A stretch of 52,530 nt of DNA. Origin: an uncultured Mycoplasmatota bacterium (GTDB lineage Bacteria; Bacillota_I; Bacilli_A; RF39; UBA660). The stretch is taken from the NCBI GenBank assembly GCA_900547465.1, contig URHJ01000005.1:1-52530 (forward strand). Direction: 5' to 3'. Every line of letters starts with the position of its first letter. Within the stretch, counting starts at the first letter, position 1. The notes beneath the pieces are model-generated. The model saw only the letters and a list, made by a program, of their open reading frames with translations. It did not search any database and had not been told where the DNA came from. The translations under genes and the position numbers were made by a program. Positions 406 through 20,424 of the stretch are shown piece after piece.

Positions 406-1716
406 CTAATGTTCAAACCCTAAATGCTCTAATTCATCTAATCGTTTAAAATTACGTGGAATAACTAGATATAATCCTTTTTTTGCTCTAGTTAATGCAA
501 CATAAATTTTATTACTTTCCATATTCCTTTTGGATGTATCAAGTAAATATTTCAAAAAATTATTATCTATAATATAAAAACAATAATCTGCTTCTAACCC
601 TTTAACCTTATTAATACTATATATTTTATGTAAATTTGAATTACAACTAATATTGTTATTTATATAATCTAATAGTTGCATTTTTAAAATTGAACTTAAT
701 TCTATATTAAATTCTGATAATAGGCTATTTATTTTTATTATTTTTTTCTTTTGGGAATAACTATCATTTTTTATAATGATTTGTATTCTTGTATTAATAT
801 ATTTTTTATCATATGAACTTACATCTTCAAAATTCAAATTACAATCGTTTATAGATTCCTTATTAATAGTAAACTTTGAAGTGGATTCTTTCATATATAT
901 TAAAAACTCTTCATTATTATTTTGAAAATTACTTACTATTGATTCTAATTCATCATAAAATATATATTTCAATATTATATCTGAATTTTCAGTACTCTGT
1001 TGTTCAGTGTCAGGACATAATCTATTTGAAATAGTTATAAGATTAGCTCCACATCTATAACAGTTGCTATTATATTCAGGAATAATATTTCTTTTTTTTA
1101 ATTCTGCAATAAACCACCTTGAATAATCTCTTCCCATAATTTGTTGTTTAGGATCACCAACGATTGAAATGTTGATAGAGTTTTTACTAATAATTTTCAA
1201 AATAATTATTAAAATATCAATATCTAAATCCTGATACTCATCTATAAAAATACTATCAATATCAGAAATAAAATATTTAAAAATATTTTCACAAACTTCC
1301 TTTTGCTTTTTACTAAAATTACTTTTTCCACATAAAATCCACTTGGACATAGAAAAAACATTATCAGTATGAATACAGCTTTTATCTAATAATCTTGAAA
1401 ATTCATAATATTTACGATTATGATTATATTTAAAAGTAACAATATTTTCTATAGGTGTCTTTTGAAAAGTATATTTATAATAAGGATTAATAATCTCCTG
1501 AATACAAAATTTATGAACAGTCATAATTTTTACATTTTTAGGTAATGATCCATATTTTTTTACATAACTATTAATAATTTGATTTACAGCATAGTTTGTA
1601 TAGGTGATAACAAAAATCTTTTTATAATTAATTATGTCATTATAACGGTTAAATATTTTTTCAACTAATCCCGTTGTTTTTCCACCTCCAGCTCCTGAAA
1701 TTTCAATGCTAATCAT
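406..1716 (-). CDS. gajB: UvrD/PcrA/Rep-like superfamily 1 helicase, GajB-like (Gabija component B)
   Basis: Walker A SGAGGGKTT, motif II IFIDEYQDL, motif III IVGDPKQQI, KGLEADYCF, motif VI YVALTRAKKGLYLV. Lies directly downstream of an OLD-family nuclease. Likely start is ATG 1716 (MISIEISGAGGGK) with GGAGA 5 nt upstream, overlapping the gajA stop by 8 nt (ATGATTAG). The track start at 1728 is a TTG. Confidence 0.8.
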   Translation of the reverse strand: MISIEISGAGGGKTTGLVEKIFNRYNDIINYKKIFVITYTNYAVNQIINSYVKKYGSLPKNVKIMTVHKFCIQEIINPYYKYTFQKTPIENIVTFKYNHNRKYYEFSRLLDKSCIHTDNVFSMSKWILCGKSNFSKKQKEVCENIFKYFISDIDSIFIDEYQDLDIDILIIILKIISKNSINISIVGDPKQQIMGRDYSRWFIAELKKRNIIPEYNSNCYRCGANLITISNRLCPDTEQQSTENSDIILKYIFYDELESIVSNFQNNNEEFLIYMKESTSKFTINKESINDCNLNFEDVSSYDKKYINTRIQIIIKNDSYSQKKKIIKINSLLSEFNIELSSILKMQLLDYINNNISCNSNLHKIYSINKVKGLEADYCFYIIDNNFLKYLLDTSKRNMESNKIYVALTRAKKGLYLVIPRNFKRLDELEHLGFEH

Positions 1717-3439
1717 AACTGTCTCCAATTACTTTTTTTAAAATATCATCAATATATGGAGGGACTGTAATTTCATCATCACTATTAATAATTTTATCTG
1801 ATAATATCAATGCACATTTTGTTTTGTTATTGCTTTGAGTCATATAATCTTCCAATGCTTGATCTTTCTTAGAAAATAAATTTTCCAAATAAGTCTTATT
1901 GCTATAAATTAGTTCTACTTCAAAAGTTCTCCTTGTTATATCTGTTATTCCTATAAAAACTTTTTTTGATTCTTCGTTTAAAGCTTTATATTCATCTATT
2001 CTTGTCTGGCTTTCATCACTATCAGTAATAATACCAAGTGAATAAGTATTATAATAGGTAAGTTCTTTCTTTGCTTTCCATACCTCAATATACCTTTTGA
2101 AAGATATCCCATTTATAGAAAGAACCTGAACTTGACCCTTTAGTTTTTTTCTAGTTAAAATAGAGTTTATAAATATTTCCTCGCTTGGACCTTCAACTAA
2201 TATTACTTTTTTTAAAAATAAAATATCTAACAATTCATAATTTGGAACTTTAGAAAAAAATGTGGCAGTATCATCACTAATGCCTGATAAGTTATATATA
2301 TCATCACTTTTTAAGATGATAACATTTTTAATATTTAATTTATTAATTATAAATGATGAATGCGTGGTTATTAATATTTGCCTCTTTTTGTTAATTTCAC
2401 TTTCATTTTGAACTTCTTCTAAATAGTTTACAAGCTTATCTAATAAAGTTTTTGATAAATGCGCTTCTGGTTCTTCCACACAAATCAAATTGAAAACACC
2501 AGTTTCTGAAATATATTTAGACAATAGCAATGAAGTAAGAACTAGATTTTTTGTTCCCAACCCCTTGGTTTCAATATGCCCTTGATTAATTCCTAATTTT
2601 AAAGAAAAAAGTAAATCATTATAATTATCAGAATTCGGTAAAAAGGATAATTCATCTTTTTCATCTAAAATTTTAGAGAATGAACTATTAAAAGATGTTT
2701 TCAAAGAATTAATACCATCAATTTTAACTATTGAGTCAACCATATTGTTATAAATTTCAACCATATCAACTTTATCATTATTTTTTAAATTATCTTTTAA
2801 CATTTTTGGTAAAATACTATTTCTTTTAGAATTGACTAAACTTATAGATGGTTCATCACGTTCTGCATCAATAGTCAACACATTTACTCTTTGTAATTCA
2901 TCACTATCAACTCTCTTATTATCTGACAACGCAATAATTTGATAATCATAGTACTCCGATGGAATTAGAAATTTTTCTTTTTCCAAAGCTCTTTTACAAT
3001 AATCATACAATTCTTCTTTTTTATTTGATAATGGAGAAAAAATATATTTTATTTTTGCTACATCTTTATCATTTTTTTCATCATGCACTATCCAATTATT
3101 TACTATGGCTAATGTTTCTTCACCAAGCGATTCTATATTATCAAATGTTAAAGTTATTTCAATTTTTGGTAATAACTCAAAACATTCATCTTTAGTAAAA
3201 TCACCTTTTTCTGATAATAAACTATAAAATTCTGTAACGCTCAGATTATTAAAGTCATCCTTATATAATATTTTAGAATAATAATTTTGACTCTTATTAA
3301 ACAAAACTAAATTAATCGCTTTAATAAAGTTTGATTTTCCTGTATCATTTTCACCTATTAAAATTGAAAAAGGGAATAGGTCTACATTAACATTTCTAAA
3401 ATTTCTAAAATTTTTAATTTTCACATTACTTATAAACAT
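1709..3439 (-). CDS. gajA: OLD-family ATP-dependent endonuclease (ABC-type ATPase plus C-terminal TOPRIM), GajA-like (Gabija component A)
   Basis: N-terminal FISNVKIKNFRNF...LIGENDTGKSN (Walker A) and LICVEEPEAHL (Walker B). C-terminal TOPRIM residues ILVEGPSEE and GIITDSDES. About 576 aa from ATG 3439, which has GGAG 8 nt upstream. The track start at 3487 is a TTG with no SD. Confidence 0.85.
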   Translation of the reverse strand: MFISNVKIKNFRNFRNVNVDLFPFSILIGENDTGKSNFIKAINLVLFNKSQNYYSKILYKDDFNNLSVTEFYSLLSEKGDFTKDECFELLPKIEITLTFDNIESLGEETLAIVNNWIVHDEKNDKDVAKIKYIFSPLSNKKEELYDYCKRALEKEKFLIPSEYYDYQIIALSDNKRVDSDELQRVNVLTIDAERDEPSISLVNSKRNSILPKMLKDNLKNNDKVDMVEIYNNMVDSIVKIDGINSLKTSFNSSFSKILDEKDELSFLPNSDNYNDLLFSLKLGINQGHIETKGLGTKNLVLTSLLLSKYISETGVFNLICVEEPEAHLSKTLLDKLVNYLEEVQNESEINKKRQILITTHSSFIINKLNIKNVIILKSDDIYNLSGISDDTATFFSKVPNYELLDILFLKKVILVEGPSEEIFINSILTRKKLKGQVQVLSINGISFKRYIEVWKAKKELTYYNTYSLGIITDSDESQTRIDEYKALNEESKKVFIGITDITRRTFEVELIYSNKTYLENLFSKKDQALEDYMTQSNNKTKCALILSDKIINSDDEITVPPYIDDILKKVIGDSYD

Positions 3440-3513
3440 ACTACATACTCCATTTGTAAAAAAGAGCAATATTAACCCATACCTCAAGATTAATACTGCC
3501 CATCTCTAAATTA

Positions 3514-3548
3514 ATTATATCACGAAGATATAATTAAATCTATAATTT
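3514..3548 (-). promoter_or_regulatory. Candidate sigma-A promoter for gajA-gajB (extended -10 TGaTATAAT, weak -35 TAGATT)
   Basis: Reverse complement of 3514-3522 reads TGATATAAT. A 3/6 match to TTGACA lies 17 nt upstream. Confidence 0.35.
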
Positions 3549-3642
3549 AACAGCAATTCATACTTAAAATTAAATTTTAAATATATTCTGTCAAAAATAT
3601 CTTATTCAACAATTACTCAAATACAGCCGTCTTAATACCCAA

Positions 3643-3945
3643 TTAAATTATGTAATGGTAAGTAAACTCGTCACCTCCCGCATTTATGTGATTAGATACA
3701 ACTATTACATCATCATCCGCACCATAAAAATCTAACACCTTTTGAATCCTTTCATTTTTAGGCAAACTTGTATCAGAATCTCTAGTAAGTACAGCAGGTA
3801 TTCCTAATTGAGTTAAACGATCATATATATATTTAGCCGCTTTTAATGTAAAATCTTTCTCATACACATTTCCGCTAATAGCTCCCGGATCGCTACCTCC
3901 ATGTCCAGCATCAACAACAACACCTTTTAATGCTCTCTCATTCAT
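3643..3945 (-). pseudogene. Truncated N-acetylmuramoyl-L-alanine amidase (Amidase_3 family), N-terminal half only
   Basis: MNERALKGVVVDAGHGGSDPGA...EKDFTL...LTRDSD...VVSNHINAGG matches the first half of the Amidase_3/CwlD-type fold, including the first Zn ligands. The frame then ends after unrelated residues (DEFTYHYII), and the C-terminal half with the catalytic Glu is missing. A full-length paralog is present at 20456-21133. ATG 3945 has AGAGGTGA upstream. Confidence 0.55.
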
Positions 3946-3995
3946 CTTTTTCACCTCTAATATAGACTATGATAATAAAAATAAAATGTGAAAAA

Positions 3996-4022
3996 CAAAA
4001 AAAGACAACCATAAAGATTGTC
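3996..4022 (-). terminator. Weak rho-independent terminator after the 4027-5304 gene
   Basis: Minus strand reads GACAA-tctttatgg-TTGTC followed by TTTTTTT. The stem is only 5 bp. Confidence 0.35.
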
Positions 4023-4026
4023 AAAA

Positions 4027-5304
4027 TTATATTTTCTTATATACCTTTTTATTACCACTATCTTTAGATGCACCATTCAATAGCTTTTTCATCTGCTTTA
4101 AATCATTAATTTTTTCATTATTTGTTTTTTTACTATTAACAGCTAGATCAACTACATTAACCCAACCAACATTATTATACACTTCTCCATTTTTAGTATA
4201 TCCATCAAAGTTAATCGCAACATTTACCTTTGAATCACTACTTTTTATAGCATCTTTAACAACCTTATCTAATGTTTTTTTACTACCATTCTTAATTTTT
4301 TTAACTTTAATACCATTCTTATCACTAATTGAAACAATAGAAGGTTTATAATAACTACAACCTACTTTATCACTACTGACAATTGGTTTAGCTCCAGATG
4401 CTGAAGATTTAAATTTAACAGACTTTAAATAGTATCTATTTCCCAAAGTAAACTTCATATTTTTAGATTTACTTGTGCTCTTGCCACTATTTTTCCTTGT
4501 TTTTACTTTAACACTACTCTTAGTAGACCTTGCACTATTACTCATATTCATAAAATCATCATCAGTCATAACTCTTGAACTAAACTTTTTATCATTAATA
4601 TTATCATCATTTTGATGTGAAATTCCAAAAACACTACCAGCAAATATAGCCATACCAATAGCTATTGGTAAAATCTTTGATAACTTGTGCGATGAATTTT
4701 CATTTCTATTAGCCATATTCCTAATTTTAATCTTATCAAATATATTTAACTTAGAATTTTTCTTATAAAAACCATCAAATTGATACTCAATTGGATAAGC
4801 ATTTCCATTTCTTGCAAAATCTTCAGCAAAATTACTATTCATTTTCTTATCAAATTTAGAAAGTGCAGAATACAAATTAACATCTATATTTTGTAAAGTA
4901 TAACTACCATACTTATCTATTATTTCTTTTACTACTTTACTATTTTTCTTCATATCATCTCTACAAATAGAAATAGGCTCACAAAAACTTCTACCATTCT
5001 TATTATAACTTATTTTATAAGAGGCACTACTCATATCAAAGATAACTTCATTAATAGAAACTGAACTATTATCAATTTTCTCAACATCTCTATTATTTAA
5101 AACAGGTCCAATACTTCTCTTCATTTTTAAAATTTCATTTCTTTTAGACTTTAAATTATTAATGTCTAATAAAATGCTTGGATCACCATAAATACCCTCC
5201 GATGAAATATATTTTTCTGTCAATTGATTTATTTGATCATTTAATTCTTCTATTTTCTTATCACACTGCTTAACTCTTTTTTTCTTTAATAAATAATCAC
5301 TCAT
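4027..5304 (-). CDS. Hypothetical single-pass membrane protein (coiled-coil N-terminus, Lys/Ser-rich C-terminal region)
   Basis: 425-aa ORF with AAAGGGGA SD. One hydrophobic segment, ILPIAIGMAIFAGSVFGI. No recognisable catalytic motif. Confidence 0.6.
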   Translation of the reverse strand: MSDYLLKKKRVKQCDKKIEELNDQINQLTEKYISSEGIYGDPSILLDINNLKSKRNEILKMKRSIGPVLNNRDVEKIDNSSVSINEVIFDMSSASYKISYNKNGRSFCEPISICRDDMKKNSKVVKEIIDKYGSYTLQNIDVNLYSALSKFDKKMNSNFAEDFARNGNAYPIEYQFDGFYKKNSKLNIFDKIKIRNMANRNENSSHKLSKILPIAIGMAIFAGSVFGISHQNDDNINDKKFSSRVMTDDDFMNMSNSARSTKSSVKVKTRKNSGKSTSKSKNMKFTLGNRYYLKSVKFKSSASGAKPIVSSDKVGCSYYKPSIVSISDKNGIKVKKIKNGSKKTLDKVVKDAIKSSDSKVNVAINFDGYTKNGEVYNNVGWVNVVDLAVNSKKTNNEKINDLKQMKKLLNGASKDSGNKKVYKKI

Positions 5305-5439
5305 AATATTCCCCTTTCACAAGTTTCTACATTATACCATAAATTGTAAAATAAAGCAAATTATAACAACCTCTCATTGCATTTAAATTTTCTTTATGAT
5401 AAAATCAAATTATATAATAGAAGGAGAGGAATGAAAATA

Positions 5440-5997
5440 ATGAGAAATGATGCAAAAAGAAATGGTGTTATAATAGGTGCACTTTTAATTACAATCGCAT
5501 TAATGACAATCGGTTATGCAGCACTTGCTACTCAATTAACAATCAATGGTACAGCAAGTACAGGCGATGCAAGTTGGAATATTGAGTTTGAATCAATAAC
5601 TAAAAATGCTGATCTAACAACTGCTGGTGCTACTGAAAAAAGTCTACCAACAGCAAGTGGTACTGCTGCTACATTTAATGTCGAACTAGCTAAACCTGGA
5701 GCAAAAATGACATATGACTTAGTAGTAGTTAACAATGGTACTATTGATGCAACATTTAACGAAATCACTGGTATTGATGAGTTAAATACAGCTGAACCAA
5801 AAGCTATAACATATAAGGCTGAAAGACTTGACAGTGCAAATGGTTCGCCAGTAACTGGTTCAGGTGACTTACTAGCTAAAGGAAAAAATTACTTTAGAGT
5901 AACAGTTGAATGGCCAGCTGACTCAAACACAGTACCTACTGAAACAACATCTAAAACAGGTACTATTTACTTAGACTATGTTCAAAAAGCAAGCTAA
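5440..5997 (+). CDS. Secreted TasA/camelysin-like protein (SipW-dependent type)
   Basis: N-terminal basic region plus TM (VIIGALLITIALMTIGYAALATQL). The mature part has VELAKPGAKMTYDLVVVNNGTIDATF, which parallels the TasA/camelysin KPGD...NxG(S/T)(L/I) core. GGAGAGG lies 10 nt before ATG 5440. ATG 5431 is an alternative start, and the track start at 5377 is a TTG. Confidence 0.6.
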   Translation: MRNDAKRNGVIIGALLITIALMTIGYAALATQLTINGTASTGDASWNIEFESITKNADLTTAGATEKSLPTASGTAATFNVELAKPGAKMTYDLVVVNNGTIDATFNEITGIDELNTAEPKAITYKAERLDSANGSPVTGSGDLLAKGKNYFRVTVEWPADSNTVPTETTSKTGTIYLDYVQKAS

Positions 5998-6014
5998 TAA
6001 ATAGGTGATATAAT

Positions 6015-6893
6015 ATGAAAAAAATAAAAAAGAATAAGTTAAGTATTTATCATAAAATTGGAATTATCTACGTTATAATTCTATTGACAATAAGTACAGC
6101 TTATTCTTTTTTAAGTGAAAATTTATCATTAGAAGCAACGACAAGCATAAAAAGCTCAGATAAAAATTACAAAGTAGAAGTAACACCAATTTCTAAAACT
6201 GATTATAACGGGATCTACTATTATGAGTACAATGTAATAATAACTTATCTAGGAACAGAAACAACAACCGGATGGACTACATATATAGACGTGCCATATA
6301 CAACACAAATAACAGGATGTTACAATGCAAATAGCTGTGATATTGAAGGACAAGTACTAACAGTAACAAATGCAGATTATAACGCTAGTTTATCGCCAAG
6401 TAATACCTCAGCATCGTTCAACATAAAATTTGAAACTGATGAAGCAGATTATTCGTTAAATATTTTAGATGTACAATTTAAAACAGGAAATACGACTACT
6501 GATCCAGATCCAACTCCTAACCCTAATCCGGATAAACCAACAGCAGTAGATTATGTAAAAATATCATATGTTATGCAGAATGACTGGGGAAATCGTCAAT
6601 GGCATGTTCTAACCATAGAAAATGTATCAGACTCAGTCACAATAACATCTTGGACTGCAACATTAAAAGTATCTTCAAGTGATACAATGACTAATGCAAA
6701 TATATGGGGCGGTACATATAGTTACGATGAAGCCAGTGGAATAATAACTGTATCAGGTCCAAGTTGGTCACCTTCTCTTGCCCCTTCTTCCAAAGCAGAG
6801 ATAAACTTTCAAATTGCTCCACCAGAGCCAGAATTAATTTCATTTGAAGGTATAACATCAACTGGAGAAAAAATAACTACAACAATAAACTAG
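6015..6893 (+). CDS. Secreted protein with two CBM2-like beta-sandwich modules joined by a Pro/Thr/Asn/Asp linker
   Basis: N-terminal signal/anchor IGIIYVIILLTISTAYSFLSENL and linker TTTDPDPTPNPNPDKPT. The C-terminal module YVMQNDWGNRQWHVLTIENVSD...SWTATLKV...IWGGTYSY...VSGPSWSPSLAPSSKAEINFQI aligns by eye with family-2 carbohydrate-binding modules. The N-terminal module is a more divergent copy. Confidence 0.6.
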   Translation: MKKIKKNKLSIYHKIGIIYVIILLTISTAYSFLSENLSLEATTSIKSSDKNYKVEVTPISKTDYNGIYYYEYNVIITYLGTETTTGWTTYIDVPYTTQITGCYNANSCDIEGQVLTVTNADYNASLSPSNTSASFNIKFETDEADYSLNILDVQFKTGNTTTDPDPTPNPNPDKPTAVDYVKISYVMQNDWGNRQWHVLTIENVSDSVTITSWTATLKVSSSDTMTNANIWGGTYSYDEASGIITVSGPSWSPSLAPSSKAEINFQIAPPEPELISFEGITSTGEKITTTIN

Positions 6894-6904
6894 AGGAGGT
6901 TAAA

Positions 6905-8092
6905 ATGAGAAACTTTAATAAAAAAATAATTTTAATTTATATAATATTAATTCTCTACATTTTGTTTACAACATTATTTGGATATAAAAATTTTAACGCA
7001 GTCACAACAAATATAATTAATCCATTATTCTATATAATAACATTTATAATAAGTATTATCTTATCAGATGCTGACAGTAAACAAAGAATTAAAGGAAAAA
7101 ACAATAAATATCAAACCGTTTTCATAGTAACAATTTCTTATTTAATATTATATACTCTTTCTGGATTATTTTTAGGATATGTAAAAAGTATTTATTCCCA
7201 TACTATTCTAAGCATACTAAAAAATATATGGATTTATATTACACCAATTGTTTTTATAGAACTAACAAGAAACATTTTAATTAGGAATTCCGGAGATAAA
7301 AAAGTACCATTTATAGTAATTTCCATACTTTTTACCATAATTGAAATAAATTTATTTAATATAATTAACATAACAGATAAAAAGGAAATTTTTAAATCAA
7401 TATTTGAAATAATTATTCCAGCAATAACAAAAAACCTATGCTTAACATATATATCAAAAACATCAGGTTACATAACAAATTTAATATATTTACTTCCCCA
7501 AAAACTTACAACTATTATACTTCCTATATTTCCAGATTTAGACTGGTACTTTACAGGTTTATTTGGAATATTAGTACCAATCTTTGCATTTATCCCAATC
7601 AAATACATTGATAACAAAATAGATATAACAAACACAAGGCAAAGAATAAAAAAAGAGAAACCAATAAACTTCATCATTATAACAATACCGTTAATCATCT
7701 TTGCATTATTTGTTGCAGGTTTTTTCAGATACAAACCAACCGCAATAATGTCAAATAGTATGCACCCAATCTATGATAGAGGAGACGTCGTAATTGTAGA
7801 AAAATCAACTAAAACAGTATTAAACAACTTAAAAAAGTATGATATAATAGAATATATGCTAGACAAAACTATTGTTGCCCATAGAATTATTTACATTGAA
7901 AAACACAATGATAATACAAGATTATATATAACAAAAGGTGACAATAACAATATGGCTGATAAAGAAAAAGTTACTAATGATCAAATAAAAGGAAAAGTAA
8001 TATTTAGAATACCAAAAATAGGTTACCCAAGTGTTTGGTTAAATGAATTTTTAAATAAAAAGGAAGATGTTGCAGTAGAGACAGGAAAATAA
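6905..8092 (+). CDS. SipW-type (archaeal/ER-type, S26B) signal peptidase I fused to a roughly 260-aa polytopic N-terminal membrane domain
   Basis: C-terminal 125 aa carry AIMSNSMHPIYDRGDVVIV (nucleophile Ser), IAHRII (His of the Ser-His dyad) and TKGDNNNMAD (GDNN box). The N-terminal 260 aa contain about 8 hydrophobic segments. GAGGAGG SD. Confidence 0.75.
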   Translation: MRNFNKKIILIYIILILYILFTTLFGYKNFNAVTTNIINPLFYIITFIISIILSDADSKQRIKGKNNKYQTVFIVTISYLILYTLSGLFLGYVKSIYSHTILSILKNIWIYITPIVFIELTRNILIRNSGDKKVPFIVISILFTIIEINLFNIINITDKKEIFKSIFEIIIPAITKNLCLTYISKTSGYITNLIYLLPQKLTTIILPIFPDLDWYFTGLFGILVPIFAFIPIKYIDNKIDITNTRQRIKKEKPINFIIITIPLIIFALFVAGFFRYKPTAIMSNSMHPIYDRGDVVIVEKSTKTVLNNLKKYDIIEYMLDKTIVAHRIIYIEKHNDNTRLYITKGDNNNMADKEKVTNDQIKGKVIFRIPKIGYPSVWLNEFLNKKEDVAVETGK

Positions 8093-8104
8093 GGAAGTGT
8101 AATT

Positions 8105-9169
8105 ATGAACTCACCAAATAGAAAAAGACCTACATTAAAAATGTGGGTTAGAGTAAGTTTGACAATTATTATATCACTTGGCATTTTTATTCCAATATTA
8201 GAAATTTACCTAAATTCAATTGAAAAAAAACAATATAACAATAAAAAGATATATAGTTACCAAATAAATCAAAGTGCAGATTACAAAGTTCAATTATTTG
8301 ATAACACATTTACTGACGAACAAGAAATGGCATCAAATAAAATATACATTGCTGATTTAACAAAAAATATAAACTTAAATTTAGGATATACATACTCTGG
8401 AACAAAAAAAGCCCCACTAAAATATACATACGAAATAACTGGAAAATTATACGGTGAGAACCAAGATAGTCAAAATGGAAAAACAAATACAGTCTGGGAA
8501 AAGAAATATCAATTATTAGAAAAAACAGAAAAAGAGGTAAAAAACACTTCTGGATTTGCTGTTACAGAAAATTTAGATATAGACTATCAAAAATATCAAA
8601 ATGAAGTAGCAAACTTCAAAAAGCGATTTGGAATGACTCTAAACACAAAATTAAAGGTTATAATGAATATAAAGGTTAATGGCAAGTATGAAAAAAATAA
8701 CATAGATAGAAATGACAACATTATTTTAGAAATACCATTAGGTACTCAAGCATTCTCAATTACAGAAGATTATGAAAAGACTAAAAGTAAAGATTATTAT
8801 GAGAAAAAACAAAATATAAAAATAGTAAATTCGGCATATACGAAATTATGTATATCCATATCATTAATATCAATTTTATTATTTATATTATCATTTAAAG
8901 CATTATTCAATATAAAACCAAAAAGTTCGTATACAAAAAAAATTAATAAAATACTTAAAAATTATGGGCAAATAATTGTCGAAGTAGAAAACCCAATTAA
9001 AGAAAAAAGCTTTAACGTAGTGAAAGTAAAAGACTTTAATGAAATGCTTGATTTAGAAGAAGAACTAAAATTACCAATCATCTTTTATGAAGATCTGTAT
9101 AACTACAAGGCAGTATTCACAATCACAAAAGAATCAACAATATACAAATGCATAATAAAAAACCAGTAA
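8105..9169 (+). CDS. Two-TM membrane protein with a beta-rich extracytoplasmic domain and a small C-terminal cytoplasmic domain (resembles DUF5305-type SipW-neighbour proteins; unverified)
   Basis: TM1 is VRVSLTIIISLGIFIPILEIY and TM2 is LCISISLISILLFILSFKALF. It is the last gene of the operon, with a 12-nt gap after the peptidase gene. Confidence 0.55.
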   Translation: MNSPNRKRPTLKMWVRVSLTIIISLGIFIPILEIYLNSIEKKQYNNKKIYSYQINQSADYKVQLFDNTFTDEQEMASNKIYIADLTKNINLNLGYTYSGTKKAPLKYTYEITGKLYGENQDSQNGKTNTVWEKKYQLLEKTEKEVKNTSGFAVTENLDIDYQKYQNEVANFKKRFGMTLNTKLKVIMNIKVNGKYEKNNIDRNDNIILEIPLGTQAFSITEDYEKTKSKDYYEKKQNIKIVNSAYTKLCISISLISILLFILSFKALFNIKPKSSYTKKINKILKNYGQIIVEVENPIKEKSFNVVKVKDFNEMLDLEEELKLPIIFYEDLYNYKAVFTITKESTIYKCIIKNQ

Positions 9170-9181
9170 TCTGGTTTTTTT
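9157..9181. terminator. Bidirectional rho-independent terminator between the SipW operon (+) and htrA (-)
   Basis: AAAAAACCAG-taat-CTGGTTTTTTT. The stop codon of the + gene sits in the loop. Confidence 0.75.
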
Positions 9182-9189
9182 ATTATGTA

Positions 9190-10476
9190 TTAATCTTTAC
9201 TTTTAGTTAATGTAACTTTAGTACTATGTTCCTTACCATCTCTAATATAAGTTATATCAATAGTATCACCAGGTTTATTCTTATAAAGTTCATATCTTAA
9301 ATAAGCCGTATTTTCTACTTTTTCTCCATTTAGTTTAGTAATCACATCACCTGATTTCAAATCAGATTTACTAGCACCACTACCATTTGATATTTCTACA
9401 ACAACAACTCCTGACTTAATACTAGAATCAACTTGAATACGATTACGATATAATAAAGATTCATCTGTAACATTAGCCATACTAATACCTAACATAGGCC
9501 ACTCAATACTTTTTCCTTGTTCAAGTTCTTCAACATGTGCCATAGCAATTTCGATAGGAATAGCAAATCCCATACCTTCTATTTCATCTTCAACAAGTTT
9601 CATAGAATTAACACCAATAACCTCACCATTAATATTAACTAAAGGTCCACCACTATTACCAGGATTTATAGCAGCATCAATTTGTAAAACCTTCATAACC
9701 CAATCATTACTACTAGAATTAGAAACATTAACTGAAACCATTCTATCTTTACCAGAAAGTATTCCAGATGTTACAGTACCACGATATTCATATCCCATAG
9801 GAGAACCAACAGTAAACACAGTATCACCTATATTCATATCGTCAGAGTTACCAATCGTAGCAACTTGCAAAACCTTACTCTTATCTATTGTCATAACAGC
9901 AATATCTAAATACTCATCTCCACCAACTATTTTAGCTTCAACTTCTTCATCATTTGATAAAACTAAAACAACTTTATCACAACCAGAAACAACATGTTGA
10001 TTAGTCATAATATATCCATACTTGTCATCAGTTTTATAAACAAAACCAGTACCAGTTGAATACTCTTCTTCCCCCTTATAAGACTCAACCATAACAACAG
10101 AATCATATACTTTACTAATAGATGTACCTAAGCTAGATTTTTCATAAACTTTAGTCTTTTTAGTATTATCAATGATATTACTCGTACCACTTGCATAATT
10201 CAAAATAGGTGTCCACTTCAAAAGAGCAATCATAACAATACCACCCATAACAAATGAGAACATTATCAAAAAACATAATCTAGAATTATTATTTTTTAAT
10301 GTTTTTTTACTTTTAGAAGTATTTACTGTACTCTTTTTCTTTTCCTCTTTTTTCTCTTTTTCTTTAAAAACAGTAGCACTATCATCTACTTTATGTATCA
10401 CTACATCATCTTTTTTTGCATTTCCAGATGAAACATGTTCACTTAATTTTTCTACTTTTTTATCTTTTTCATTCAT
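9190..10476 (-). CDS. htrA: HtrA/DegP-family membrane-anchored serine protease with C-terminal PDZ domain
   Basis: Catalytic triad contexts TNQHVV, YLDIAVM and GNSGGPLVN. N-terminal Lys/Glu-rich tail plus TM LCFLIMFSFVMGGIVMIALL. PDZ-like region SGDVITKLNGEKV. Confidence 0.9.
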   Translation of the reverse strand: MNEKDKKVEKLSEHVSSGNAKKDDVVIHKVDDSATVFKEKEKKEEKKKSTVNTSKSKKTLKNNNSRLCFLIMFSFVMGGIVMIALLKWTPILNYASGTSNIIDNTKKTKVYEKSSLGTSISKVYDSVVMVESYKGEEEYSTGTGFVYKTDDKYGYIMTNQHVVSGCDKVVLVLSNDEEVEAKIVGGDEYLDIAVMTIDKSKVLQVATIGNSDDMNIGDTVFTVGSPMGYEYRGTVTSGILSGKDRMVSVNVSNSSSNDWVMKVLQIDAAINPGNSGGPLVNINGEVIGVNSMKLVEDEIEGMGFAIPIEIAMAHVEELEQGKSIEWPMLGISMANVTDESLLYRNRIQVDSSIKSGVVVVEISNGSGASKSDLKSGDVITKLNGEKVENTAYLRYELYKNKPGDTIDITYIRDGKEHSTKVTLTKSKD

Positions 10477-11422
10477 TTTCTACAACACTCCTTTCAATAT
10501 TAGCTAAATCTTTCCAGTTAGATGGAAATCCCATTTTATTTAAAACATCATCAACTCTAATAGTTTTCAAATTATAATCTAACGTTCTAAAAGCATTCTC
10601 AATTTCAATTGTCATACTCTTAAATTTGTCAGCATCTAATAACTGCTTCATAATAATAATCAAAGCAAAAGGATCATTCTTTCCAGAAACATATTCACCA
10701 TCAACTTTTTCAATTCCTAAAACCTTATGATAAATAGTATCCCCTATTACCTTTTGTGTTTTATAATCATACACAATTTCTTCATGAGCACATAAATTTC
10801 TGTAGTTAGCAAGAATAGGTAAATATGTGCTAAAGGTTTCAACATCAACTCCATAAATATTACTAATAGCCAGCTGATCATCCTGCTTCAAGATAGAATA
10901 CATCTCACTAACAATTCCAAATGACAAAACTTTTACTAAAATCCATAAAGGAATATAACCATAATTACATGCATAATGTTGAGTAGCACTATGTTGATCA
11001 CCATTAACCCTGATCTGTCTTTTCATCTTTTTTAAAAGATCATTGACTTGTCTTTGTTTCTCCGGTCGTCTAGTAAAATTTTTAGCTTTCAAGTAATCTC
11101 TTTCTTTATAACCATATTTTTTAGACAATTGATAAGATGTGATAGATTTAAAGTTATTTTCAATTATAAGTAAATTCTTAAAACAAATATTTCTAAAAGT
11201 ACGATCAAATAAAAATAAACTATACAATTCTTCAAATGTTGCTCCATCTTTATAGACTCTTTCATTAGAAGACTTCATAAGCATATGTCTATATCCATTC
11301 AAAAAGAAATAATTTTCACGAAGTAATATACTTTTAGCATAATCTTCATTATGAATAATTAAATGCTTATTCTTTAATATTTCTACTTGTTCATCAAGAG
11401 TTTTGAATTGTTTCTCTATCAT
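10469..11422 (-). CDS. Abi_2 family (AbiD/AbiF-like) abortive-infection-type protein with HEPN Rx4H motif
   Basis: N-terminus FKTLDEQVEILKNKHLII.NEDYAKSILLRENYFFLNGYRHML is typical of Abi_2. YRNLCAHEE supplies the HEPN R-x4-H motif. ATG 11422 has AGGTGA 5 nt upstream, and the track start at 11431 is a GTG. The stop overlaps the htrA start by 8 nt (ATGAATGA). Confidence 0.75.
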   Translation of the reverse strand: MIEKQFKTLDEQVEILKNKHLIIHNEDYAKSILLRENYFFLNGYRHMLMKSSNERVYKDGATFEELYSLFLFDRTFRNICFKNLLIIENNFKSITSYQLSKKYGYKERDYLKAKNFTRRPEKQRQVNDLLKKMKRQIRVNGDQHSATQHYACNYGYIPLWILVKVLSFGIVSEMYSILKQDDQLAISNIYGVDVETFSTYLPILANYRNLCAHEEIVYDYKTQKVIGDTIYHKVLGIEKVDGEYVSGKNDPFALIIIMKQLLDADKFKSMTIEIENAFRTLDYNLKTIRVDDVLNKMGFPSNWKDLANIERSVVENE

Positions 11423-11440
11423 AATTCTCACCTACTATAA

Positions 11441-11526: not shown

Positions 11527-12492
11527 ATGCCCGCAACTATAACTCATGCCTACTTTGCAGAAGATTTATTTAATCTATTAGATAAAAATACAAAAAATAA
11601 AATAAAAGAGAACAAAAAAAAATTAATGATGTTTTCACAAAGTACAGATCCATTAATGTTTTACATAATATCACCAACCAATGGAAAAAAAATAAGAAAT
11701 TTACAACATATTGCACACACAGAAAAAACAAATGATTTTTTCAAAAACACAATCACTTTTATTAAAGATAATAAATACTATGAGAAACCAGATGTTTTAG
11801 CCTTTTTATATGGATTTATCTGTCATTTCGTGCTAGATAGTAATGTACACCCTTTTATTTTTTACAAAACGGGAGAATTTATAAAAGATGATAGCAAAAC
11901 ATATAAGTACAATGGATTACATCACAATATGGAAAGTTACCTAGACAACTATATGCTAAAGAAACATAATATTACTAAAATAAATCTCAAAAAATTCTGT
12001 TTTTCATTAAAACCATTTACTAAAGAATTAAATAAAGTAATATCATATTCTTTTCTAAAAACATACAATATAAACAATATGGACAAAATTTACTTGAACT
12101 CATTAAAACAAATGAATTTCTTTGTAACAGCTTTTAGATTAGATCCGCACAAATATAAAAGTCATATATATAGATTCATTGATAAATTTACACCACCTAA
12201 AACCTTTAAATTAGAAGCAATATCATATAACATAGTAGATAAAAAAATAGATTATTTAAATAATAATCACAAAGAATGGAACTATCCAATAGATAAAAAA
12301 TTTAAAAGCCATAAAAGTTTTGAAGAATTATATCAAGATTCTCTGATTGAAGCTAAAAACATAATTGAAAAAGTTAATAACTATTTTTTTAAAAATCAAA
12401 ATCTAGAAATAGATTCACTTTTTCACAATAGAAACTACTTAACAGGTGTCGATTGCAAAATTAAAAAGAAACAAAAATATTTCGAATTTTAG
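11527..12492 (+). CDS. Zinc-dependent phospholipase C-like family protein (no signal peptide)
   Basis: MPATITHAYFAEDLF..., GFICHFVLDSNVHPFIF and NGLHHNMESYLD form the His/Asp-rich pattern of the Zn_dep_PLPC-like family. AAGGAAGGA SD. Confidence 0.55.
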   Translation: MPATITHAYFAEDLFNLLDKNTKNKIKENKKKLMMFSQSTDPLMFYIISPTNGKKIRNLQHIAHTEKTNDFFKNTITFIKDNKYYEKPDVLAFLYGFICHFVLDSNVHPFIFYKTGEFIKDDSKTYKYNGLHHNMESYLDNYMLKKHNITKINLKKFCFSLKPFTKELNKVISYSFLKTYNINNMDKIYLNSLKQMNFFVTAFRLDPHKYKSHIYRFIDKFTPPKTFKLEAISYNIVDKKIDYLNNNHKEWNYPIDKKFKSHKSFEELYQDSLIEAKNIIEKVNNYFFKNQNLEIDSLFHNRNYLTGVDCKIKKKQKYFEF

Positions 12493-12536
12493 TATAAAAA
12501 AAACAATACTATTCATACTAATATCAGGTGAAATAT

Positions 12537-13592
12537 ATGATATATAGATATGAAATAAAGAACAATGGAGCAGAAGATATACTTTATTTGTATGTCACTA
12601 TGACATATGAATTTTCTAAAGAATTAGAAGATAATAAAACAGAAAAAGTTAAATCAACCTGTAAAAAATTTATGAAAAATAATAGTATCGATTTCAAAGG
12701 AGACAAAATCTATCTAGTTATTGATGGAATAATAGTAAAGACACTTAATATTAATGAAGAGAATGATACAAAAGAAAATGAAAAATCAACAATTGATTTA
12801 TCAAACGATAATTTCTATGTCAATCTACACTATCCAAATAATAATACAGTAAAAATGACATTGAAAAATTATCTTTTAGGTGTTTTAGCAACTAATACAA
12901 TGGAAAACTTAGAATTAACTACCACAAAAGCACTTTGCTTACTCTATAGAACTTATGCATATAAACAAATGAAAGAAAAAAATTATATTGAAGCAATAAA
13001 TCCATATCAAATTTATAAACCTTTTTCCTACTACAAAGTATTTTGGAATGAAAAATACAACGATTATCATAATAAGTTTGTAAAAGCTATAGAAGATACT
13101 GATAAAGAATTTGTAACATATAATAATAAGTATATAAACCCATACATACACATCAGTAATAATGGATATACAGATAATAATAAAAATATCCCATATTTAG
13201 AAAAAAGACCAAGTCTCTGGGATTATGCATCTCCTTATTATTTAGAAATCAAAGACTTTACAAATCAAGAAATGAAAAATATATTCAATATTGACAAAGA
13301 TAATTTAAAAAACATAAATATATTAAAAGTAAGTGAATCAAACTATATCAGAAAAATAAAAATAGGAAACAATGAGTATACAGGAGAAATGCTTAAACAA
13401 AAACTAAATCTAAAGTCAACAGATATAACAATTATAATAAATCCAACCTACATTAGATTCATAACTAAAGGTTGGGGAAATAACTTAGGTATTAGTCAAT
13501 TTGGAGCAAATGAAATAGCTAAAGCAGGTTGTTCTTATACAAGCATTTTGAAATATTATTTTCCAAAAATATCAATAAAAAAATACCTATAA
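12537..13592 (+). CDS. SpoIID/LytB-domain protein (divergent)
   Basis: LKNYLLGVLATNTMENLELTTTKALCLLYRTYA aligns with the SpoIID core (Y..GVvaaEMP....ealKAqa.aaRTy). C-terminal GWGNNLGISQFGANEIAKAGCSYTSILKYYFP matches GHGvGmSQyGA..mA..G..y..IL..YYp. ATG 12537 has AGGTGA 5 nt upstream, and the track start at 12528 is a GTG. Confidence 0.75.
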   Translation: MIYRYEIKNNGAEDILYLYVTMTYEFSKELEDNKTEKVKSTCKKFMKNNSIDFKGDKIYLVIDGIIVKTLNINEENDTKENEKSTIDLSNDNFYVNLHYPNNNTVKMTLKNYLLGVLATNTMENLELTTTKALCLLYRTYAYKQMKEKNYIEAINPYQIYKPFSYYKVFWNEKYNDYHNKFVKAIEDTDKEFVTYNNKYINPYIHISNNGYTDNNKNIPYLEKRPSLWDYASPYYLEIKDFTNQEMKNIFNIDKDNLKNINILKVSESNYIRKIKIGNNEYTGEMLKQKLNLKSTDITIIINPTYIRFITKGWGNNLGISQFGANEIAKAGCSYTSILKYYFPKISIKKYL

Positions 13593-13618
13593 AAATAGAG
13601 CCAATTAAAGCTCTATTT
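13593..13618. terminator. Bidirectional hairpin between the SpoIID-like gene (+) and the T7SS-like operon (-)
   Basis: AAATAGAGC-caattaaa-GCTCTATTT flanked by A and T runs. It overlaps the last codons of the 13613 ORF. Confidence 0.6.
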
Positions 13619-13837
13619 ATTTTTTTCAATCATAACTTTTAAAGCAGAATCAGAATCTTGATATAATTTAACACTTGTTTCTAGAAACTTAGAATAATTA
13701 TCTAAACTATCACAAAATTCAGTAACCTGATCAATATTAGGATGATACTTATCAATGATTTTTCTTATGATCTGAGATGATTTAGCTAAAGATTTATATG
13801 CTTGTTCCATTTCTTCATATGTCATTTCTCCAATCAT
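13613..13837 (-). CDS. Small (74 aa) helical-hairpin protein, candidate T7SS-associated substrate or chaperone
   Basis: Predicted helix-turn (YHPNID)-helix. C-terminal LYQDSD fits a YxxxD/E motif. ATGA overlap with the upstream 61-aa ORF, with AGAGGT SD. Confidence 0.55.
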   Translation of the reverse strand: MIGEMTYEEMEQAYKSLAKSSQIIRKIIDKYHPNIDQVTEFCDSLDNYSKFLETSVKLYQDSDSALKVMIEKNK

Positions 13838-14019
13838 TTTTCTACCTCTTTCTTATCCTTCTTTTCCAAATAATTAGCTCCTCTAATAACAACATTTTTA
13901 AACTCGTTGATTTCCTCAATAGAACTTAAATTATCATTATTAGTCCAACTATTTTTTAATTTTTCAAGTAAGGAAAAGATATTATTTACCTCTGTAACAT
14001 ATTTTTCATAATCATTCAT
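13834..14019 (-). CDS. Small (61 aa) helical-hairpin protein, candidate T7SS-associated substrate or chaperone
   Basis: Helix, then turn NSWTNND, then helix. A strong GGAGG SD overlaps the esaB stop. It is not a canonical WXG100 protein, being too short and lacking W-x-G. Confidence 0.55.
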   Translation of the reverse strand: MNDYEKYVTEVNNIFSLLEKLKNSWTNNDNLSSIEEINEFKNVVIRGANYLEKKDKKEVEK

Positions 14020-14029
14020 AAAATACCTC

Positions 14030-14287
14030 CTAAAGCAATATCAATCGTGAACCATTTTTTAAATCAGAATCAATTATTCTCATATTAACATCATAAATTT
14101 GTCCTGTTTCTTTACTATACAGATTAACTTCATCAGAAGTAACATAATCATGATCAGTCAAGTCAATAATTCCTTTTTCAATTAAATTCTTAATAGTACC
14201 AATATGTTTAGAAACAGGTACAAAAACATCATATGATTTTTCTATACTAGGGATGGAAATCTCTAATAATATTTTGTTATTTTCCAC
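14030..14287 (-). CDS. esaB: EsaB/YukD-family ubiquitin-like T7SS protein
   Basis: 85 aa. LEISIPSIEKSYDVFVPVSKHIGTIKNLI...DSDLKNGSRLILL matches the YukD pattern. GTG start with AGGTGA 4 nt upstream. Lies immediately downstream of essC. Confidence 0.8.
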   Translation of the reverse strand: MENNKILLEISIPSIEKSYDVFVPVSKHIGTIKNLIEKGIIDLTDHDYVTSDEVNLYSKETGQIYDVNMRIIDSDLKNGSRLILL

Positions 14288-14295
14288 AAAATCAC

Positions 14296-18900: not shown

Positions 18901-18987
18901 CCCAGCTTACACTACAAACACTTTCTATTCTAAGATTAATTATAACCTTTTTTCAATGCATTTACAATATATATTTGGAATAATTCA

Positions 18988-20424
18988 TTACTTAGCAACA
19001 GAATTTTTTTTCAAAGAAGTATACTTTTGATAATTAGAAAAACAAGTATTAAAATTATTAATAGAATCATATGAAGAATATAATCCATCAACAATAGATG
19101 AAGAATACTTATAATTAAGATTAATTAAAGAACTTTTTAAAATATTTTTAGTTTTTATGCTATAAATATCTAAATTCTGCTGTAAAACAGTATCCATTAT
19201 GACATTATAAACATTTTCAGCATCTTCATTAAATGCATAATAATAATCATCATTAGTTATTGTAGAATCATTATTATTTCTATGTCTATTATAACTAGTA
19301 GCCATAATCCAAGTTTGAGCAAATTTTGCCTTAGCTACCATAAGTTCATCAGAACACAAAGAACCATCTTTTTCTAAAATACATTGACCTAATGCATTAT
19401 ACTTAATATTATAGTTATCATATATTCCTTTGATTGAATTTAACGAAAAGTCATATCTCGGATAGAAATCAAAAAAAGAATAGGTTTTCCCGATTTCGGA
19501 ATCATCTAAAAAAGGTTTTACTACATTCCTTTCCACACGACAAGAAGATGTATTATTCTTATGTAAATCTATTTCATCAATACATTTTAAAATAGAATTA
19601 TATACCAATTCTTTAAATTCTGCATTGCCATACTTTTTCTTAAAAATATTAAAAATTTTATTATCATATTCCACTTTAGACAATAAATAATCAGAACCTT
19701 TGATTAAATTACCATTATAGTCAAAATATTGAAATGGATTATCGTCTAAATATTTTTTAACAGCTTTTTCAATTCCATCAGAAAAAGACTTGGAAACAAC
19801 TGCTGAAAAAGATAAATGATCATCGCGTACTATATTATCTGCATACCCAATCCAAGAATTTATTTTTGATACTATCAAAGATGGTTCTTCACATCTAGAA
19901 ATAATATCAGGATGTTCATTTTCAAGCTCTTTTAATATTTCGATATTTCTATTTAAGTTCTTTGATGAAGAATAAATAACCATATTATCCTTTCTACCTA
20001 ATGATTCATTTCCAGCTATTTTAAAATAAAAAGGAATATCAACTTGTTTATATTTTTCATATAAATAAGAAGAAAATTTATGAATATCCTCATTTGCAAG
20101 ACATAAATACAATCTACAATCAATATCTTTCGATCTATATCCAACCTTACCAACTTCTTGAGAACGAACACTATACCATCCATTTTGACTAATCAAAGGA
20201 TGAACCCTCAAATTCAATCCAGTTTTTTTATAATCTTTATCAACTTTATCAATAAAATTTACAAAAGCATCAGTATCTATTTCTCCATTTTGATTGCATA
20301 AATCAACATTAATAATATTATATATTTGTTTATATGGTTCTATAAAATAACTAAATCTTTTATTAACATACAAATCTAAAACTTTAAAAATAACATTTTT
20401 ATCTACAATTGAACGTATATCCAT
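18988..20424 (-). CDS. Hypothetical soluble 478-aa protein, first gene upstream of essC
   Basis: Strong SD (GGTAGGAGG) and no TM segment. The segment CRLYLCL...IPFYFKIAGNESLGRKDNMVIY is faintly reminiscent of HopA1 / LanKC-N-terminal-like proteins, but I cannot verify this. Confidence 0.6.
   Translation of the reverse strand: MDIRSIVDKNVIFKVLDLYVNKRFSYFIEPYKQIYNIINVDLCNQNGEIDTDAFVNFIDKVDKDYKKTGLNLRVHPLISQNGWYSVRSQEVGKVGYRSKDIDCRLYLCLANEDIHKFSSYLYEKYKQVDIPFYFKIAGNESLGRKDNMVIYSSSKNLNRNIEILKELENEHPDIISRCEEPSLIVSKINSWIGYADNIVRDDHLSFSAVVSKSFSDGIEKAVKKYLDDNPFQYFDYNGNLIKGSDYLLSKVEYDNKIFNIFKKKYGNAEFKELVYNSILKCIDEIDLHKNNTSSCRVERNVVKPFLDDSEIGKTYSFFDFYPRYDFSLNSIKGIYDNYNIKYNALGQCILEKDGSLCSDELMVAKAKFAQTWIMATSYNRHRNNNDSTITNDDYYYAFNEDAENVYNVIMDTVLQQNLDIYSIKTKNILKSSLINLNYKYSSSIVDGLYSSYDSINNFNTCFSNYQKYTSLKKNSVAK

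Follow-up and report, generated by a model that had tools for sequence, protein, structure and literature searches.

A compact four-gene operon of an uncultured gut Bacilli lineage related to AbpX-type donor-strand fiber loci

Here, we have analyzed a four-gene operon in a 52,530-nucleotide stretch of DNA (contig URHJ01000005.1 of assembly GCA_900547465.1, positions 1 to 52,530; hereafter the window) from an uncultured Mycoplasmatota bacterium of the RF39/UBA660 lineage. The operon probably encodes both a surface or matrix fiber that belongs to the AbpX branch of the TasA superfamily and the module that processes it. The window has a G+C content of ∼27% and its minus strand carries nearly all genes. 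Four co-directional open reading frames (ORFs) on the plus strand (5431-5997, 6015-6893, 6905-8092 and 8105-9169, referred to as genes 1 to 4) are separated by only 17 nt (5998-6014), 11 nt (6894-6904) and 12 nt (8093-8104), exactly as a preliminary description of this DNA had reported. The features discussed below are as follows:

5421..5429, plus strand: ribosome-binding site AAGGAGAGG ahead of gene 1 (direct reading of the sequence)
5431..5997, plus strand: gene 1, predicted AbpX-like (TasA-superfamily) major subunit precursor, 188 aa (profile and AlphaFold2 model)
5431..5520, plus strand: predicted signal peptide of gene 1, residues 1-30, ending LMTIGYA (hydropathy, motif in relatives, AbpX precursor)
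5521..5556, plus strand: putative donor strand of gene 1, A31-A42, ALATQLTINGTA (register shared with AbpX)
6015..6893, plus strand: gene 2, candidate accessory subunit or adhesin, 292 aa (subunit-type N-terminus, two CBM2 modules)
6015..6143, plus strand: predicted signal peptide of gene 2 (residues 1-31, ending ISTAYS) and donor-strand-like segment F32-T43, FLSENLSLEATT (match to AbpX)
6228..6428, plus strand: CBM2-like module 1 of gene 2, residues 72-138 (CBM_2, 29.4 bits when scanned alone; cut-off 24)
6567..6818, plus strand: CBM2-like module 2 of gene 2, residues 185-268 (CBM_2, 25.7 bits when scanned alone; cut-off 24)
6905..7654, plus strand: N-terminal polytopic domain of gene 3, eight predicted membrane helices within residues 6-243 (AlphaFold2, hydropathy, conservation)
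7664..8092, plus strand: anchor helix (254-270) and Sec11/archaeal-type signal peptidase I domain of gene 3 (TIGR02228, SEC11, Foldseek)
8105..9169, plus strand: gene 4, DUF5305 protein, 354 aa (PF17231, hydropathy)
9147..9191, no strand assigned: hairpin terminator common to gene 4 and a convergent htrA-like gene (9190-10476, minus strand)

The preliminary description had put the start of the operon at 5377, a TTG codon. A GGAGAGG sequence (5423-5429) directly precedes ATG codons at 5431 and 5440, and the homologs of gene 1 (182-188 aa in length) begin at the position of the second of these. Thus, the true start of gene 1 is the ATG at 5431 or 5440, and the TTG only marks an upstream extension of the ORF. 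At the other end, the proposed strong bidirectional terminator was confirmed and appeared stronger than a simple scan had implied: the hairpin has ∼20 bp and a folding energy of −20.2 kcal/mol (z = −8.7 versus shuffled sequences), gene 4 has its stop codon inside the loop, and the htrA-like gene reaches its own stop (9190) at the base of the stem. Runs of A and T on opposite sides fit termination in both directions. An Rfam scan of positions 4900-9400 (E up to 1) revealed no riboswitch, leader RNA or other element in or upstream of the operon, and the signal of a promoter scan of the region was not above shuffled expectation.

Gene 1 had no significant family match in Pfam and NCBIfam. Peptidase_M73 was not matched by gene 1 and appeared below threshold in only 4 of 48 relatives (best E 0.0064), and the TasA model NF046066 gave an E-value of 0.071 (12.5 bits; cut-off 450). 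A large protein collection contained 94 relatives of ∼165-190 aa. These proteins share a basic N-terminus and a hydrophobic stretch followed by the motif M-[AST]-[VI]-G-Y-[AS]-x-[LF]-[AS]-x-x-L-T-I-N-G-T-A, whose first part (M-[AST]-[VI]-G-Y-[AS]) is kept in 87 unique subunit-like relatives, as well as several downstream motifs (W-[ND]-[IV]; ...PG(D)...Y...V-N-x-G-T-I-D-A; and a C-terminal ...L-x-Y-x-Q). A phmmer search with gene 1 alone found no match among Protein Data Bank (PDB) sequences, so that the family profile was required; with the profile, only chains of AbpX, from fiber and crystal structures, were matched (9sj2_C, E 4.6e-4; 9rhp_A, E 8.4e-4). AbpX is the subunit of a Pyrodictium abyssi fiber that was solved by cryo-electron microscopy as a donor-strand polymer, in which W2, L6, L8, A10 and I12 of each subunit are buried in the groove of its neighbor and Glu4 helps to bind calcium. 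Comparison of the two families by hhalign gave a probability of 97.5% (E 7.8e-12) over 164 columns spanning signal peptide, donor strand and core. It should be noted that the AbpX side of this comparison consisted of the AbpX precursor and four relatives: a word-based search with the AbpX core returned five sequences, all of Pyrodictium type, and the bacterial AbpX homologs described in a recent preprint (see below) lay outside it. On this sequence evidence, the demonstrable relative of gene 1 is AbpX, which the literature places in the TasA superfamily. The preliminary description had called gene 1 TasA/camelysin-like; such a likeness appears to hold at the superfamily level only, by way of AbpX, and was not found at the family level.

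The N-terminal region of gene 1 could be compared with AbpX residue by residue. Cleavage is predicted after Y29-A30, by analogy with the sites of AbpX (TYA/QW) and TasA (TWA/AF). The putative donor strand that follows is hydrophobic at mature positions 2, 6 and 8 and has small residues at positions 10 and 12, which places L2, L6, I8, G10 and A12 in register with the five buried residues of AbpX. Among the relatives, L/F at +2, L at +6, I at +8 and N-G at +9/+10 are conserved; of the 87 sequences, 50 have L and 32 have F at +2, and both gene 1 and gene 2 of the window have Leu. In the AlphaFold2 model of the gene 1 monomer (predicted local distance difference test score 89), an N-terminal helix precedes an eight-stranded β-sandwich (residues 51-185), and the N-terminal segment lies unpacked outside the sandwich.

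The relatives of gene 1 also had weak matches to DUF7507/CLIPPER_2 (10 of 48; best E 8.5e-7) and DUF11 (14 of 48), and to CARDB and immunoglobulin (Ig)-like families. Domains of the former families often carry Lys-Asp-Asn triads, and the isopeptide triad has been defined for CLIPPER_2/DUF7507 domains (PMC12617251), which would make gene 1 a CLIPPER_2/CnaA-like domain stabilized by an isopeptide bond within the chain, like the domains of fibrillar adhesin stalks or sortase pili. We consider this scarcely credible. The DUF7507/CLIPPER_2, DUF11 and CARDB matches stem from the same PG(D)...N-G-type motif, gene 1 itself is below threshold for these families, the triad is not conserved, and no Lys or Asp occurs among the invariant or near-invariant columns of the family; moreover, gene 1 is a single-domain protein in an operon with neither a sortase nor an LPXTG motif. 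An intermolecular isopeptide bond between the donor-strand Asn (+9) and Lys175 was also considered and rejected, as this Lys is not conserved in distant relatives.

Gene 2 shares the N-terminal region of gene 1 and carries a different body. The hidden Markov model of the gene 1 family aligned to residues 13-67 of gene 2 with an E-value of 2e-7 in a one-to-one comparison and 3e-4 among 1487 ORFs. In addition, FLSENLSLEATT agrees with the mature N-terminus of AbpX, QWSETLSLSATI, at 7 of 12 positions (S3, E4, L6, S7, L8, A10 and T11); L2, L6, L8, A10 and T12 are in the AbpX register and, unlike gene 1, gene 2 has Glu at +4. The same N-terminal motif is common to 18 unique gene-2-like proteins of related loci. 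The remainder of gene 2 matched CBM_2 (48.2 bits, 1.5e-12 for the whole protein), and the two carbohydrate-binding modules suggested before were each above the Pfam cut-off when scanned alone. They are 29% identical to each other and are joined by a linker rich in Pro, Thr, Asp and Asn (∼residues 165-184); among solved structures, the CBM2 of a clostridial endoglucanase D (3ndy) is nearest. Most gene-2-like partners elsewhere contain CBM_2 in two or three copies, CBM49 or a cadherin-like module. No TapA family was matched by the operon proteins in Pfam and NCBIfam scans, in agreement with the preliminary description, which had noted the lack of a TapA-like gene. TapA is an accessory protein that donates a strand to TasA (PMC10151520). 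Since gene 2 shares both signal and donor-strand motif with gene 1, it could take such a strand-donating accessory role, at most as a TapA analog, and the absence of TapA would then leave no functional gap.

Gene 3 (395 aa) combines an N-terminal polytopic domain with a C-terminal peptidase domain. Residues 257-380 matched TIGR02228 with 79.3 bits (2.8e-22; cut-off 51.85); SEC11C and SEC11A were matched at ∼1e-12 among PDB sequences, and 7p2p_A at 8e-4 by Foldseek. Candidate catalytic residues are S285, H326 and D346/D352, which are invariant among orthologs down to 27% identity and represent the Ser/His rather than the Ser/Lys type. The SipW equivalog model NF046067 gave 62.5 bits (3.8e-17), far below its cut-off of 190. 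By these profile comparisons, gene 3 is classified as a Sec11/archaeal-type signal peptidase I and not as a SipW ortholog; of the earlier notion of a SipW-type peptidase fused to a polytopic domain, the signal peptidase family and the fusion to eight extra helices stand and SipW orthology does not. The charge distribution would place the catalytic domain outside the cell.

With the anchor, gene 3 has nine predicted membrane helices. The highly conserved eight-helix domain is the most interesting part of the operon. Across 42 orthologs (down to 27% identity), Y83, G87, N107, E119-x-x-R122, N177, T181, Y182, P207-x-x-P210 and W214 are conserved, and a Pfam scan of the domain in 39 members matched no family. 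A search with this domain alone against 1.84 billion representatives yielded 781 clusters (at 50% identity), nearly all of which are proteins of 375-400 aa that begin with this domain and continue into Peptidase_S26. A single weak Foldseek match to the Rce1 fold was observed (4cad_C; TM-score 0.56 on the target, E 0.45). An Rce1/CPBP-like identity was not accepted, as PF02517 was not matched in the 39 members and no His is conserved, and the match is given here as a lead only.

A further question is whether the helix preceding the putative donor strand is cleaved at all. If genes 1 and 2 were type II membrane-anchored surface proteins with an uncleaved helix, the peptidase fusion would serve other substrates or have a non-catalytic role, like SipA/LepA in the assembly of streptococcal pili. 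AlphaFold2 indeed draws residues 6-38 of gene 1 as a single continuous helix, and gene 3 has the SipA structure of Streptococcus pyogenes among its fold matches. However, orthologs with identities as low as 27% all retain the catalytic Ser, His and Asp of gene 3, and positions −3 and −1 of the predicted sites (G/A and A/S) obey the signal-peptidase rule and align with the cleavage sites of AbpX and TasA, which makes this possibility very unlikely in our view.

Gene 4 was correctly described as a protein with two membrane helices and a large external domain, and it can now be assigned to DUF5305 (PF17231; 81.5 bits, 7.9e-23; cut-off 29). According to hydropathy, a helix at ∼17-35 is followed by an external domain of ∼215 residues, a second helix at 250-268 and a Lys-rich cytoplasmic tail of ∼85 residues. 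In the loci examined, DUF5305 always adjoins the polytopic peptidase (adjacent in 47 ORFs). DUF5305 may be an accessory subunit of the peptidase, because the literature reports strict gene adjacency, DUF5305-peptidase fusions and the genetics of the haloarchaeal peptidase TafD, which is paired with the DUF5305 protein TafG; the idea of a non-catalytic accessory subunit is modeled on the eukaryotic signal peptidase complex.

To date, 63 related loci could be examined, which were obtained from exact-protein look-ups and a genome scan. It should be noted that the scan used a 10-sequence alignment, and this search pattern biases the taxonomic range toward close relatives. All loci came from metagenome-assembled genomes of uncultured bacteria, mostly labeled as Bacilli, Tenericutes, Mollicutes or Acholeplasmataceae and mostly from human or animal gut. 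Approximately 45 of the 63 have the order subunit gene(s), optional gene-2-like gene, polytopic signal peptidase and DUF5305, with peptidase identities down to 27%, an arrangement that is far beyond chance. Some loci lack the gene-2-like gene, and in others (L028-L032 and L036) the subunit genes are in tandem, with three paralogs upstream and a fourth downstream of the peptidase/DUF5305 pair. Two remote polytopic peptidases likewise adjoin DUF5305. In one locus (L063), the peptidase, whose N-terminal domain is homologous to that of gene 3 (E 1e-40), is preceded by two subunit genes with the canonical TAYA/LWSK...VQWNEY features. No other conserved neighbors were observed around the operon outside the close lineage; the HtrA, AbiD and amidase-fragment genes next to it are kept within the immediate lineage only.

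Several side observations were made in the same set of loci. The L063 peptidase (3460-5373) is a 637-aa polytopic signal peptidase whose C-terminal extension contains a hydrophobic stretch and, after it, LAYS and HWSETIYIQGTVTTG, which resemble the signal and donor strand of AbpX. Either a peptidase is fused here to a substrate, or the ORF is an artefact of assembly or frameshift. Four other loci (L039, L044, L046 and L050) encode proteins of 477-552 aa that start with a subunit module and have no adjacent peptidase. A gene for a protein of ∼210 aa, sigma-factor-like by eye, lies ∼3 kb upstream of the subunit gene in L026, L027, L037, L040 and L045 and has no equivalent in the window.

The operon as a whole corresponds component for component to a locus type that has already been described. 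According to a preprint of January 2026 (bioRxiv 10.64898/2026.01.04.697558), whose sequence set was drawn from RefSeq, AbpX-like proteins of Thermoproteota, Bacillota and Chloroflexota make up a clade of their own within the TasA superfamily, and their loci contain minor subunits, structurally variable tip proteins, a ten-helix signal peptidase I and a DUF5305 accessory protein. Gut bacteria, Mollicutes-like lineages and carbohydrate-binding partners go unmentioned in its text. The likeness to our operon includes the homology of gene 1 over signal peptide, donor strand and core, with the Y-A cleavage context and the amphipathic strand in register, the DUF5305 accessory and variable tip or minor proteins found at most AbpX-like loci, and the layout of the peptidase adjacent to abpX in P. 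abyssi, which is the same (380 aa, with the S26 domain at 269-370); the N-terminal domain of that peptidase aligns weakly with the gene 3 family, with the E-x-x-R motif in register. On the other hand, there are several differences. Mature gene 1 has an isoelectric point of 4.5 and 12% Asp+Glu (∼4.0 and 14.6% in AbpX), and its LTINGTA-type strand has neither aromatic clamp nor acid; nine helices are predicted in gene 3 and ten are reported by the preprint; the partner protein bears CBM2 modules; no cyclic di-GMP or two-component genes are present in the neighborhood of this minimal four-gene layout; and the host belongs to an uncultured mesophilic gut Bacilli lineage. Thus, the functional reading of the preliminary description was right in substance, and the operon does differ from tasA-tapA-sipW by its carbohydrate-binding partner and extra membrane component, as claimed there, but the TasA likeness and the novelty of the composition were overstated.

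The TasA-TapA-SipW system of Bacillus subtilis (PDB 8aur) is similar in having a secreted β-sandwich subunit, a Sec11-type peptidase in the same operon and cleavage after an aromatic residue and Ala (TWA/AF); TasA forms its fiber by donation of an N-terminal strand, and an accessory protein also donates a strand (PMC9674648, PMC10151520). The SipW-like peptidase domain (NF046067) and the PGD...N-G motif that gene 1 has in common with TasA might even suggest a diverged ortholog of the Bacillus tapA-sipW-tasA or clostridial sipW-bsaA operon. However, the TasA and Peptidase_M73 models were unmatched, hhalign gave 23% to TasA versus 97.5% to AbpX, the score against the SipW equivalog was 62.5 versus a cut-off of 190, and SipW of B. 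subtilis spans the membrane with two helices and lacks both a polytopic domain and a DUF5305 partner, so that orthology seems highly improbable. The haloarchaeal tafi combine a dedicated signal peptidase I (TafD) and an adjacent DUF5305 protein (TafG) with donor-strand pilins (TafA/TafE) and tip or adhesin proteins, and deletion of the peptidase TafD abolishes tafi. They differ in that their subunits are exported by the twin-arginine translocation pathway and belong to another superfamily cluster, and TafD has four helices and a C-terminal Ig-like domain but no eight-helix domain at its N-terminus. Among solved structures, the catalytic domain of gene 3 has its closest relatives in the eukaryotic signal peptidase complex (SEC11A/C and SPCS; PDB 7p2p and 7p2q), in which SEC11 has one membrane helix and acts as a general rather than a substrate-dedicated peptidase. 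Finally, chaperone-usher and other donor-strand pili also insert an N-terminal strand into an incomplete β-sandwich and have tip adhesins, but the operon system lacks chaperone, usher and outer membrane, and the relation is by mechanism only.

Considering these data together, we favor a surface or matrix fiber of the AbpX branch of the TasA superfamily. The homologies, the common N-terminal motif, the domain architectures and the conserved synteny were observed directly. The use of the cleavage site by gene 3, polymerization through donated strands, the role of DUF5305, and the ligand of gene 2 and its place in the fiber belong to a model that we infer. The products of genes 1 and 2 would be exported by Sec and held in the membrane through the conserved signal peptide ending in G/A-Y-A/S. 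Gene 3, a predicted Ser/His signal peptidase I on the outer face, would then cut after Y-A/S with the DUF5305 protein of gene 4 as accessory, and the cut would free an amphipathic N-terminal strand, ALATQLTINGTA in gene 1 and FLSENLSLEATT in gene 2. The freed strand may enter the open β-sandwich of the next gene 1 subunit to give a non-covalent polymer by donor-strand complementation. Cleavage and strand completion of this kind are proposed because genes 1 and 2 keep the alternation of AbpX and the cleavage context of AbpX and TasA; conservation of the N-terminal motif in 87 subunit-like and 18 gene-2-like sequences is far above what a generic signal peptide needs. Since gene 2 has a donor strand and two CBM2 modules replace the subunit core, it would be attached to the fiber, in the simplest case at whichever end has an unoccupied acceptor groove, and might serve as a glycan-binding adhesin and possibly as a nucleator, as TapA does for TasA.

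A number of observations weigh against this model. The alignment of the gene 1 family with TasA (23%; TasA query identical to PDB 8aur_A) was confined to 31 columns around the PGD...N-G motif. A Foldseek search of the PDB with the full-length gene 1 model returned weak generic matches to Ig, adaptin-ear and pilin-like folds (best E 7e-3), including pilin domains of CsuA/B and PapGII. The best 50 of 829 matches contained no TasA or AbpX, which says little either way, since these 50 were the ones listed and AbpX entries may post-date the fold library. Gene 1 has Leu in place of the aromatic residue at position 2 of AbpX (the Trp clamp) and Thr in place of the acidic residue at position 4 (Q/T in the family), and the calcium-site residues of AbpX (D18, D46, D48 and E52) are not conserved: in the sequence alignment, D18 corresponds to N50 of gene 1, and the D46/D48/E52 loop to a gap or non-acidic stretch. 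The assembly chemistry of gene 1 may therefore differ from that of AbpX. In addition, polymerization is proposed from a monomer model and sequence comparison, many bacterial AbpX loci have a wall anchor and the operon lacks LPXTG or SLH motifs, and the terminal position suggested for gene 2 hinges on whether its module 1 accepts a strand.

The missing clamp, acid and calcium-site residues would also fit a dedicated maturation module, in which genes 3 and 4 only release two secreted or surface proteins that do not polymerize and act as monomers, for example in the capture of polysaccharides. Generic β-sandwich matches in Foldseek, the weak CARDB, DUF11 and Ig-like matches of the relatives, and the CBM2 modules, which are typical of secreted glycan-binding proteins, are in line with this explanation. 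Nevertheless, we regard it as unlikely: a 12-residue amphipathic segment is conserved after the predicted site in 87 + 18 sequences, in register with a proven donor strand, the homology to AbpX extends across the whole gene 1 protein, and related loci contain tandem subunit paralogs as pilus operons do. With a fiber as the preferred reading, the absence of clamp and acid from the gene 1 strand and the lack of conserved calcium-site residues make a calcium-independent variant of the AbpX mechanism likely in this clade.

The eight-helix domain and DUF5305 might, in a more speculative and rather doubtful extension of the fiber model, form a membrane assembly machine that couples cleavage to hand-over of the donor strand to the next tethered subunit, so that the fiber would grow at its base, be anchored by the last subunit, which is still uncleaved, and present the CBM2 protein, as the first to be incorporated, at its tip. 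The intramembrane residues E119-x-x-R122, N107 and N177 together with the weak Rce1-like match could indicate a second catalytic or a substrate-gating activity. If such a machine exists, it would represent a signal-peptidase-driven pilus pathway distinct from chaperone-usher, sortase, type IV and self-assembling TasA/AbpX systems, with no calcium switch in this clade.

The AbpX-type relationship extends this branch of TasA-like matrix fibers to uncultured gut Bacilli, a lineage whose cell surface is little known, and suggests that these bacteria attach to glycans through a CBM2-bearing fiber. As a compact four-gene system that lacks the calcium-site residues, the operon also offers a handle on the roles of the polytopic domain, DUF5305 and the accessory strand donor.

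Several genes in the neighborhood of the operon were also examined. A Gabija defense pair is present on the minus strand at 406-3487, consisting of a GajB-like UvrD helicase (406-1728, E 2.9e-88) and a GajA-like OLD-family ATPase/nuclease (1709-3487, E 1.3e-99), and an AbiD/Abi_2 gene lies just downstream of the operon (10469-11431, minus strand). In two near-identical relatives, the slot upstream of the operon contains type I restriction-modification and Abi_2 genes (L007, 1-5385) or RnlA/RnlB and DUF7017 (L008, 136-2883); the fiber operon therefore adjoins a variable defense islet. The gene divergent from the operon (4027-5304, minus strand) encodes a 425-aa protein that starts with a coiled-coil-like region, contains a single hydrophobic segment and is rich in Lys and Ser throughout its C-terminal half; it had no match in Pfam and PADLOC and is also present beside the operon in L007 and L008. 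A 103-aa ORF at 3643-3954 (minus strand) corresponds to the N-terminal part of Amidase_3 only, and 14 related loci retain it in this short form; the window also has a complete Amidase_3 gene (20456-21133). A 1534-aa protein with FHA and FtsK/SpoIIIE domains (13600-20424, minus strand) resembles the type VII secretion ATPase EssC, and three small genes (61-85 aa) accompany its counterpart in L007, followed by a gene for a protein of 478 aa that matches HopA1 weakly; together, these suggest a type VII secretion cluster. Finally, the GC skew of the window is negative throughout, and a run of ribosomal-protein-sized genes (∼26-41 kb) lies on the minus strand. The fiber operon and the genes at 11527-13592 are the only plus-strand blocks and would therefore be transcribed against the direction of replication, provided that the skew marks the leading strand.

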